A stretch of DNA of 64,000 nucleotides from Escherichia coli (GCF_024223415.1 NZ_CP100500.1), one strand, 5' to 3'. Shown: positions 45,042-46,847, counted from the stretch's first letter. Made by a program: numbers and translations. The notes: generated from the sequence alone by a model not told the origin.

Positions 45042-46847
45042 ATGGCGGCTGTAAAAATTTCAGGCGTGCTGAGGGACGGAACCGGAAAACCGGTACCGGG
45101 ATGCATTATTGAGCTGAAAGCGAAGAGAACCAGCGAGACAGTCATCGCCACGACAGTGGCTTATGGCATGCCGGAAGAGACGGGGAGTTACAGTATGGAT
45201 GTGGAGCCAGGAATATACAGGGTGACACTCAATACAGAAGGTTACCGTCCTTCGTATGTGGGAGATATCGTGGTCAGGGAGGATTCTTCACCGGGAACAT
45301 TGAATAAATTTCTGATGGAGCTGGAAGATGCTCCTTATTATCCGAAGGCGTTGTCAGAGCTGGAGGCTGTGGTGCAGTCCATACTGCACAGAGCAGAGTC
45401 CGCGGCATCTGAGGCGGAGGAAGCCCGGAAACGAGCTGCATCTGCCCGGGGACCACGAGGAGAGAAAGGGGATACCGGCGCACGTGGTGAAAGAGGCATT
45501 ACCGGGCCACAGGGGCCAAAAGGTGAAACAGGAGCACGTGGCCCGGCAGGACCACAGGGACCAAAAGGTGAAACAGGTGAACGCGGTCCGGCAGGTCCAC
45601 AGGGACTAAAGGGCGATACAGGTGAACGCGGCCCGGCAGGTCCACAGGGACCAAAGGGTGAAACAGGTGCACGCGGCCCGGCAGGTCCACAGGGAGCAAA
45701 GGGCGAAACAGGTGAACGCGGCCCGGCAGGTCCACAGGGAGCAAAGGGCGAAACAGGTGCACGTGGTCCGGAAGGCCCTCAGGGTCTGAAGGGAGAAAAG
45801 GGTGAGCGAGGAGAAAAAGGCCCTAAGGGGGATAAAGGAGATCCGGGAGGTCCACAGGGACCAAAGGGGGATACAGGTGAACGCGGCCCGGCAGGTCCAC
45901 AGGGATCAAAGGGCGATACAGGTGAACGTGGCCCGGCAGGTCCTCAGGGACCAAAGGGGGATACAGGTGAACGTGGCCCGGAAGGTCCACAGGGAGCAAA
46001 GGGTGAAACAGGTGAACGCGGCCCGGCAGGACCACAGGGACCAAAAGGTGAAACAGGTGAACGCGGTCCGACAGGTCCACAGGGAGCAAAAGGTGAAACA
46101 GGAGCACGCGGTCCGGCAGGTCCTCAGGGACCAAGAGGAGAGTCAGCCCGTGGACAACTGCTGAATGGTGATCTGAACCGACTGGGACGAGTGACCGATC
46201 AGGGTGATTATTATCAGCCATCAGACAGTGGGGCTACACGAGAAAATAATTATCCGATTCAGAGAGCGGGTTATCTTCAGGTAAGAGTTGGTGCATGGGG
46301 ATATTGCCAGCATGAATATACAACCTGGAACCCACCACGAAAGTTCGTAAGAACTGTTACTGGTAATTTTACCGGTAATGGCCCCTGGTCTGAATGGAAA
46401 GAGCTGGGAGCCCAGGGGGAGCGTGGTCCACAGGGAGCAAAGGGCGATACAGGTGAACGCGGTCCGGCAGGTCCACAGGGACTAAAGGGGGATACAGGTG
46501 AACGCGGCCCGGCAGGTCCTCAGGGACTAAAGGGCGATACAGGTGCACGCGGCCCGGCAGGTCCGCAGGGACAGCCGGGGCAGCCAGCGAGCGTCGGAAG
46601 TGTTTATTCCGTGGGGTCTTATGTTCTGGGGATCATAGAACGAAATCATGAGGTAACAAATACCCGTGAAATACCCGGGTATCGTATCAGACAGGCCGTT
46701 ATTGTGTCGTCGTCATCGGATAAACTTACAGATATCCGCTTTTTATTTGGCGATCCTATGCTTGGTACATGGATGTTATGCACAACTAACATGACAGTGA
46801 ATAATATCATTGGGACGATTTGGGGCCTGTTTCAGAGAATACGGTGA
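45042..46847 (+). CDS. stf: side tail fiber protein with collagen-like Gly-X-Y repeat blocks
   Basis: 601 aa; N-terminus resembles lambda Stf ([18 protein letters not shown]...); two blocks of G-X-Y triplets ([19 protein letters not shown]...) flanking a globular insert. Confidence 0.85.

Follow-up and report, generated by a model that had tools for sequence, protein, structure and literature searches.

The repetitive DNA between positions 45450 and 46586 of the window, i.e. of the whole analysed stretch of 64,000 nucleotides from Escherichia coli (NZ_CP100500.1), is in all probability (about 0.9) the part of stf that codes for the shaft, in a chromosomal E. coli prophage which is lambdoid and P-Eib-like. 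Its product would form a side tail fibre in which two collagen-like shaft segments are separated by a globular knob and followed by a distal tip.

Genomic context and gene identity

The gene and its neighbours are located as follows.

41075-44983, plus strand: gpJ tail-tip / central fibre gene, directly upstream of stf (Pfam Ig_J, Phage-tail_3, Ig_GpJ_C and others)
45042-46847, plus strand: stf-like side tail fibre gene, intact ORF, 601 aa (PHROG tail fiber families, e.g. phrog_366, E 2e-120)
46862-47437, plus strand: DUF4376 gene, presumed tail-fibre assembly chaperone (PF14301, E 7.3e-21; phrog_1141 'tail fiber protein', E 2.3e-61)
47876-49285: YadA-anchor protein, an Eib/YadA-type surface adhesin, next gene after the DUF4376 chaperone gene

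The ATG of the stf-like gene is preceded by GGAG at 8 nt upstream. Its stop codon lies 14 nt before the start of the DUF4376 gene, which has its own GGGGAG and which is found directly downstream of the stf homologue in all seven E. coli loci that were examined. The order J-stf-DUF4376, the N-terminal PF08400 domain ('Prophage tail fibre N-terminal', E 2.7e-39) and a match of aa 3-92 to PDB 9E7M/9MGH (chain 'Tail fiber protein', E 5.5e-30), a chain which we take to be lambda Stf, mark the gene as a side tail fibre gene, in agreement with the identity proposed earlier by a model reading the sequence alone.

About 45 kb around stf represent a lambdoid prophage with integrase, DnaB-type helicase, lysozyme, terminase gpA, lambda-type portal and tape measure genes. 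The prophage adjoins the yciE/F-trp region of E. coli, and in this flank several E. coli chromosomes agree with the window at 100% identity. The counterpart of the YadA-anchor gene in NRZ14408 is annotated as 'immunoglobulin-binding protein'. This prophage would assemble the fibre into virions.

A terminator-like hairpin followed by a T-run is located between J and stf (45002-45021) and counts against the favoured explanation. Expression of stf would therefore need antiterminated late transcription, as in lambda, whose late operon is expressed via antitermination.

Domain architecture of the fibre protein

Parsing of the translation gives the layout nc136-Col232-nc87-Col60-nc86 for the 601-aa protein. 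The domains and the DNA repeats below them are assigned to the following positions.

45048-45440, plus strand: N-terminal tail-attachment domain PfN (PF08400), aa 3-133
45450-45845, plus strand: Col1a, 44 Gly-X-Y triplets, aa 137-268
45846-45848, plus strand: extra Gly, aa 269, which breaks the Gly-X-Y register inside a G-x-P-G-G-P-x-G motif
45849-46145, plus strand: Col1b, 33 triplets, aa 270-368, six 15-aa units followed by GPQGPRGES
46146-46406, plus strand: globular insert, 87 aa, aa 369-455, predicted pyocin-Knob2-like intra-fibre knob (profile, AF2, Foldseek, phrog_6578)
46407-46586, plus strand: Col2, 20 triplets without interruption, aa 456-515 (PF01391 best stretch 456-515)
46587-46844, plus strand: C-terminal domain, 86 aa, aa 516-601, ending in GLFQRIR (alignments with 28 homologues; predicted all-beta)
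45507-46134, no strand: degenerate 45-bp tandem array, 14.3 copies, 76% matches, 135-bp period also scored (TRF)
46425-46572, no strand: second 45-bp tandem array, 3.3 copies, 92% matches (TRF)

The long PCoil domain is absent, and only about 40 aa lie between the PfN core and Col1. By analogy with the proteins described by Ghosh et al. (2012, PMC3368898), these last residues of the N-terminal domain (...ARKRAASAR) may form a short alpha-helical neck.

Col1 comprises 232 aa (45450-46145) with 77 triplets and one extra Gly in the sequence GDPG|GPQG, so that the break motif G-D-P-G-G-P-Q-G covers aa 266-273. An 18-aa leader is followed by six 15-aa units of the type GPQGxKGxTGxRGPx, a divergent, Lys/Glu-rich core of 24 aa that ends with GDKGDP directly before the extra Gly, six further units, and GPQGPRGES. 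The longest in-register Gly run is 45, whereas 2000 shuffled versions of the protein gave at most 8 and on average 3.8, and the Gly-X-Y pattern is thus far beyond chance. Pfam Collagen (PF01391) matches the 601-aa protein with an E-value of 2.1e-48. Within the 97 triplets of both blocks position X is occupied by Pro (43%) and Asp/Glu (36%), and position Y by Arg/Lys (43%), Gln (20%), Thr (19%) and Pro (3%).

The sequence-only reading had placed a side tail fibre with two collagen-like blocks at 45450-46590, which is accurate, since Col1 (45450-46145) and the second, shorter block (46407-46586) both lie in the frame of the plus-strand ORF 45042-46847. Its long block of about 75 perfect triplets does exist, but numbers 77 and is interrupted by the Gly at aa 269; the non-collagen segment between the blocks is globular as proposed, though with 87 aa instead of about 95. 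Likewise, the DNA is repetitive with a 45-bp unit, but the roughly 18 related units of the stf gene are degenerate, and the longest exact repeat within the gene is 51 bp. The 45-bp unit is not found elsewhere in the 64-kb window. Four ORFs in other frames or on the other strand overlap the repeats (45328-45609 and 45802-46164; 45499-45762 and 45823-46221 on the minus strand); they were taken as stop-free shadows of the repeat and not as genes.

The knob between the collagen blocks

The 87-aa insert has no match in Pfam and NCBIfam, and the PHROG search assigned it to the tail-fibre family phrog_6578 (E 1.8e-8). A word-indexed protein search with the insert alone as query returned nothing. This was a limit of the sensitivity of that tool, because tblastn against phages revealed the module in 88 phage records, within their tail fibre genes. 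The hosts of these phages include Escherichia, Aeromonas, Achromobacter, Proteus, Vibrio and Yersinia, and siphovirus, myovirus and podovirus groups are all represented.

A profile built from eleven sequences of the module (A1) matched the R2/R1 pyocin fibres in the PDB (6CL6, E 4.6e-12; 6CT8, E 6.9e-12; 6CL5, E 2.6e-9). The matched part comprises chain residues 138-209 of the 323-691 construct, which is roughly Knob2. The AF2 model of the insert, calculated as a monomer from the A1 alignment, reached a pLDDT of 89.5, and Foldseek placed it closest to the same three PDB entries (probability 1.00, TMq 0.71-0.76, rmsd 2.4-2.8 A), followed by a knob-like domain of the tailspike of Acinetobacter phage AS12. 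On the basis of these profile and predicted-fold matches the insert is assigned to the pyocin-type knobs, like Knob2 of the R-type pyocin fibres.

Pyocin knobs are trimeric nodes with beta-sheets packed on the three-fold axis, for which a function in the folding of the trimeric fibre was proposed; Knob2 is hypervariable and a role in LPS binding was suggested (Buth et al. 2018, PMC6116203). The insert shares with Knob2 of the Pseudomonas R1/R2 pyocins the profile, the predicted fold and the place it occupies in a trimeric fibre, namely as a globular node with thin shaft segments on either side. However, here a single knob is flanked by collagen helices on both sides, whereas the tandem knobs of the pyocins have a helix-turn rod on one side and an iron-containing shaft on the other. 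In contrast to the hypervariable pyocin Knob2, the knob is nearly invariant in the close homologues, which argues that its role in this subfamily lies in structure rather than in specificity.

The C-terminal domain

No match was found for the C-terminal domain in Pfam, NCBIfam or PHROG, nor by tblastn against phages, and an exhaustive phmmer search of 1.84 billion representatives yielded only its own cluster and spurious repeat proteins. By eye, the domain was seen to share the motifs VG[ST][FY]V and PG[TS]W..C as well as the terminal GLFQR[IA]x with other collagen-like fibres of E. coli at their C-termini. Four relatives recognized by hand were used for a profile, which recovers 28 proteins, nearly all of them E. 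coli fragments annotated as 'collagen-like protein' or 'phage tail protein'; one of the 28 is derived from an Acinetobacter MAG. The domain is thus one member of a small family of fibre tips located behind collagen, characterized by VGsY/F..., PGTW.C and GLFQR.

The AF2 model of the domain is all-beta and weak (pLDDT 64.9), and Foldseek gave no fold match (best E 2.7). The profile search of the PDB yielded nothing beyond chance-level matches to coagulation factor XI (E 0.36). The distal position, the trimerising PfC domain of EPclA (PMC3368898) and the constant downstream DUF4376 gene suggest that this domain is a tip which registers the trimer and may bind the receptor, the latter being proposed from its position only.

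Relationship to known collagen-like proteins

Collagen-like proteins encoded in prophages of EHEC (EPclA-D) were described as side-tail-fibre proteins that carry PfN and contain one Col domain or two, of variable length (Ghosh et al. 2012, PLoS One 7:e37872, PMC3368898). In their triplets Pro and Asp/Glu dominate position X, and Lys/Arg, Gln, Thr and Ala position Y; beside the X and Y values of the window protein, Table 4 of that study gives 48/36 and 31/14.5/20/7. Those with two Col domains contain a conserved G-x-P-G-G-P-x-G break in the first one. Experiments with EPclA (CD, AUC and EM) revealed a trimer in the shape of a dumbbell that contains a genuine collagen triple helix (PMC3368898). 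The window protein agrees with this family in its side-tail-fibre position within a prophage, in PF08400, in the composition of X and Y and in the break motif.

EPclA and EPclB possess a PCoil coiled coil of about 109-116 aa and a C-terminal PfC (PF06820), and EPclB in addition Pf2 (PF03406) between its Col domains (PMC3368898). We looked for both families in the two non-collagen segments, but Pfam and NCBIfam remained empty for PF06820 and PF03406 even at E<=10 with the isolated segments, so that a Pf2 or PfC identity of these segments was rejected. As PCoil, PfC and Pf2 are all absent, the window protein does not belong to EPclA or EPclB.

EPclC proteins have two Col domains, usually no PCoil and a C-terminus that is not homologous to PfC, the type example being ORF-401 of P-EibA (PMC3368898). 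The window protein likewise shows two Cols, no PCoil and a C-terminus without PfC match, and therefore appears to fit EPclC of the ORF-401 type, as compared with the published description of ORF-401. Both have the same tail position, PfN, two Cols with a break, the same X/Y preferences and a non-PfC C-terminus, and as in P-EibA an eib-type gene is located downstream of stf. They differ in the length of Col1, which is with 232 aa about twice as long as in the listed EPclC examples (106-118 aa). While the inter-collagen segment of EPclC was left without identity (PMC3368898), it corresponds here to a predicted pyocin-type knob and not to Pf2 (PF03406) of EPclB; the assignment of this segment in the EPclC-like subtype is a small increment of the present analysis.

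With lambda Stf the protein has the N-terminal tail-attachment domain, the place after J and the small assembly gene next to it in common. In place of a collagen shaft, however, lambda Stf has Pf2 repeats together with a distal part that resembles T4 gp37, as is well established (see also PMC3368898), and its family is accompanied by a Caudo_TAP-type Tfa, in contrast to the DUF4376 (PF14301) chaperone of the window. No PF03406 match was found, and the common part of the protein itself is restricted to the N-terminal domain.

Long, charged Gly-X-Y triple-helix regions without hydroxyproline are also known from Scl1/Scl2 of Streptococcus and Lcl of Legionella. One may ask if the gene encodes a bacterial collagen-like adhesin, i.e. 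a lysogenic-conversion 'moron' exposed on the E. coli surface and not a part of the virion. The raw NCBIfam E-values are indeed strong (Lcl 1.2e-61, SclA 6.6e-57, SclB 4.9e-56), and the next gene but one encodes a real Eib/YadA-type surface adhesin. The scores of 194, 191 and 209 bits for Scl1, Scl2 and Lcl, however, lie well below the respective cut-offs of 400, 325 and 500 (NF038330, NF038329, NF046116) and concern only the Gly-X-Y part, so that membership in the Scl/Lcl adhesins is ruled out on the curated cut-offs. Moreover, the tail-attachment domain of lambda Stf forms the N-terminus, neither a signal peptide nor an anchor was seen on inspection (the protein starts with MAAVKISG... and ends with ...GLFQRIR), phage domains are present at both ends, the gene occupies the J-stf-tfa position, and the insert domain recurs in phage tail fibres as described above. 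We regard a surface adhesin as extremely improbable.

The side tail fibre is instead an ordinary member of the family described in 2012 and as such already known. RefSeq contains 601-aa proteins of the same architecture, annotated as 'prophage tail fiber N-terminal domain-containing protein', with a DNA identity of 97.7-97.9%. Near-identical DNA was not found in the phage collection, and the allele is known only from chromosomal prophages.

Length variation of the collagen blocks

The domain layouts of 40 close relatives were compared, comprising 34 database proteins and six annotated genes from complete genomes. In the complete sequences the non-collagen segments always have 136, 87 and 86 aa. 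Uninterrupted forms of Col1 measure 57, 72, 87, 102, 117 or 132 aa. The interrupted forms, given as parsed runs plus the break residue, are 105+1+51, 135+1+51, 135+1+96 and 135+1+111, i.e. 157, 187, 232 and 247 aa. Col2 has 30, 45 or 60 aa, or 33, 48 or 63 aa in a variant with a different junction. All these differences within Col1 and Col2 are multiples of 15 aa, which equals the 45-bp DNA unit. With 232 aa, Col1 of the window is near the top of its range of 57-247 aa.

The 601-aa allele of NRZ14408 differs from the window gene at 39 nucleotides, 36 of which are located in the collagen DNA that represents 48.5% of the gene (p = 7e-9); the knob and the C-terminal domain show no nucleotide difference at all. 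For 34 of 35 such collagen sites, another unit of the window gene already carries the other allele's base at the same register position, and this fits an exchange between units. The 15-aa steps, the clustering of differences in the collagen DNA and the shared bases support unequal recombination and gene conversion among the units as the probable source of the length variation. The sequence-only reading had predicted recombinational length variation and suggested comparing the repeat number with homologous stf genes; that comparison bears the prediction out, as close homologues differ only in collagen length, in 45-bp steps (Col1 57-247 aa, Col2 30-63 aa). A shaft length which is quantised in units of 15 aa or 45 bp, with fixed globular domains, is the second small increment indicated by these alignments.

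The same reading had warned that the locus is prone to assembly collapse. The repeat number could be an artefact, produced by collapse or expansion of the 45-bp array or by a chimera of paralogous collagen-like stf genes. The gene carries about 18 related units, E. coli genomes with a close homologue contain 8-32 matching places each, and neither the exact window protein nor the NRZ14408 allele is present in a collection of 15 billion protein sequences. Many database homologues are 'partial', being cut off within the collagen region where a contig ends, which indicates that short-read assemblers struggle with this gene class, and as a general caution the warning is fair. There is, however, no sign of collapse in this window. 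The units match each other by only 76%, ordinary reads and k-mers exceed the longest exact repeat of 51 bp, the ORF keeps an intact frame, and its layout of six units, core and six units is orderly. In addition, the gene aligns without gaps over 1806 bp, at the identity given above for the RefSeq relatives, to complete E. coli genomes represented by records of seven different sizes. An artefact is therefore considered very unlikely.

It is also improbable, if somewhat less so, that the gene only looks intact and is a relic without function in a defective prophage, with a length variation that would be neutral slippage without consequence. Many lambdoid prophages of E. coli are defective (PMC3368898), and relatives of the gene are often disrupted or located beside IS elements, as seen for IS1414 in J of NRZ14408 and for the truncated stf of GF60 and AR_0085. 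In the window, however, the ORFs for integrase, replication, lysis, terminase, portal, tape measure, J, stf and tfa are of full length. All length changes are in frame and concern whole units, and the non-collagen domains are conserved, down to the identity with NRZ14408 mentioned above, which together argues for purifying selection.

Proposed fibre structure and biological meaning

As a side tail fibre, the protein would act as a homotrimer of three chains, which the lambda-Stf-like N-terminal domain would dock on the tail tip. The short helical neck would lead into the triple helix of Col1 with a length of approximately 67 nm (232 aa x 2.88 A per residue, using the rise calculated for the Col domains of EPclPs, PMC3368898). 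The extra Gly probably causes a local kink or hinge. The knob would then serve as a trimeric node for folding or registration and possibly as a secondary saccharide-binding site, followed by the Col2 triple helix of about 17 nm and the beta-rich tip of 86 aa. This tip is expected to nucleate the register of the trimer and to contact the host surface, presumably with the help of the DUF4376 chaperone. Each 15-aa unit corresponds to about 4.3 nm of fibre length. On the DNA level, unequal recombination or gene conversion between the degenerate 45-bp units would add or drop whole units in frame and thereby lead to a fibre length that varies between strains.

A more far-reaching idea is that the knob and the GLFQRIR tip are two separate binding sites and that the collagen arrays are adjustable rulers, which tune the reach of the fibre and the spacing between knob and tip to the depth of O-antigen or capsule. 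We consider this tentative and rather unlikely; if it were true, the repeat number would be an adaptive host-range trait and not the result of neutral slippage.

The example adds little that is new, but it is a clean illustration of a shaft quantised in units between fixed globular domains. It also draws attention to a gene class in which short-read assemblies often break, while the repeat count found here looks trustworthy. Side tail fibres affect the speed of adsorption and the host choice of lambdoid phages including the Stx-converting ones, and by this influence on adsorption they affect the horizontal spread of virulence genes.

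Prophage extent and mosaicism

The prophage that carries the collagen-like side tail fibre gene stf extends from a tyrosine integrase gene to the Eib-like and HTH genes, to about 49800, and adjoins yciE/F (DUF892) and the trp operon region. Several E. coli chromosomes match the flank at 52020..63943 with 100% identity. Among the complete E. coli genomes in the collection no contiguous copy of the 40-52 kb prophage segment was found (best coverage 51%), and for this reason the tail end of the prophage is regarded as mosaic. The prophage also contains a porin gene, probably for a phage-borne porin of the NmpC/Lc type.

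4672..5985, minus strand, tyrosine integrase, first end of the prophage
18981..19988, minus strand, full-length Gram-negative porin (PF00267, E 1e-122)

Genes flanking the side tail fibre

The tail-tip protein gpJ is longer than its counterpart from lambda, which has 1132 aa. In a coiled-coil-like stretch that lies between its Ig domains and its tail-tip fibre domain, a sequence of about 58 aa (VAKKSxEQSxAIAxVDRKVD...[21 protein letters not shown]) is directly repeated, occurring twice. The J-stf gap comprises 58 nt and includes a terminator-like hairpin. It lacks the lom gene that several relatives (NRZ14408, strain 135) carry at this position.

41075..44983, plus strand, gpJ, 1302 aa, upstream of stf
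45002..45029, plus strand, terminator-like hairpin (GGGCGCC-AGAAAT-GGCGCCT and T-run) in the J-stf gap

Downstream of the presumed fibre chaperone (DUF4376) a YadA-anchor protein is encoded, which contains an exact internal duplication of about 33 aa ([30 protein letters not shown] x2). The annotation of strain NRZ14408 lists the counterpart as a pseudogene of the immunoglobulin-binding (Eib) type, and the gene described here looks like an Eib-like prophage moron. The HTH ORF directly after it, at the end of the prophage, may encode its regulator.

47876..49285, plus strand, YadA-anchor protein (trimeric autotransporter), 469 aa
49346..49801, plus strand, 151-aa ORF with sigma-70 region-4/HTH domain (PF08281, E 2e-7)

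Collagen repeats and database entries

In two database proteins, P0138 and P0137, a GLFQRAY fibre tip is joined directly to the N-terminus of the DUF4376 chaperone or to unrelated sequence. These fused entries probably arose by mis-assembly or recombination across the collagen region in contigs built from short reads.

Four ORFs of 87-132 aa overlap the stf collagen repeats.

45328..45609, plus strand, alternative frame
45499..45762, minus strand, opposite to stf
45802..46164, plus strand, alternative frame
45823..46221, minus strand, opposite to stf

They were rejected as genes and are regarded as stop-free shadows of the repeat, which could mislead gene callers.
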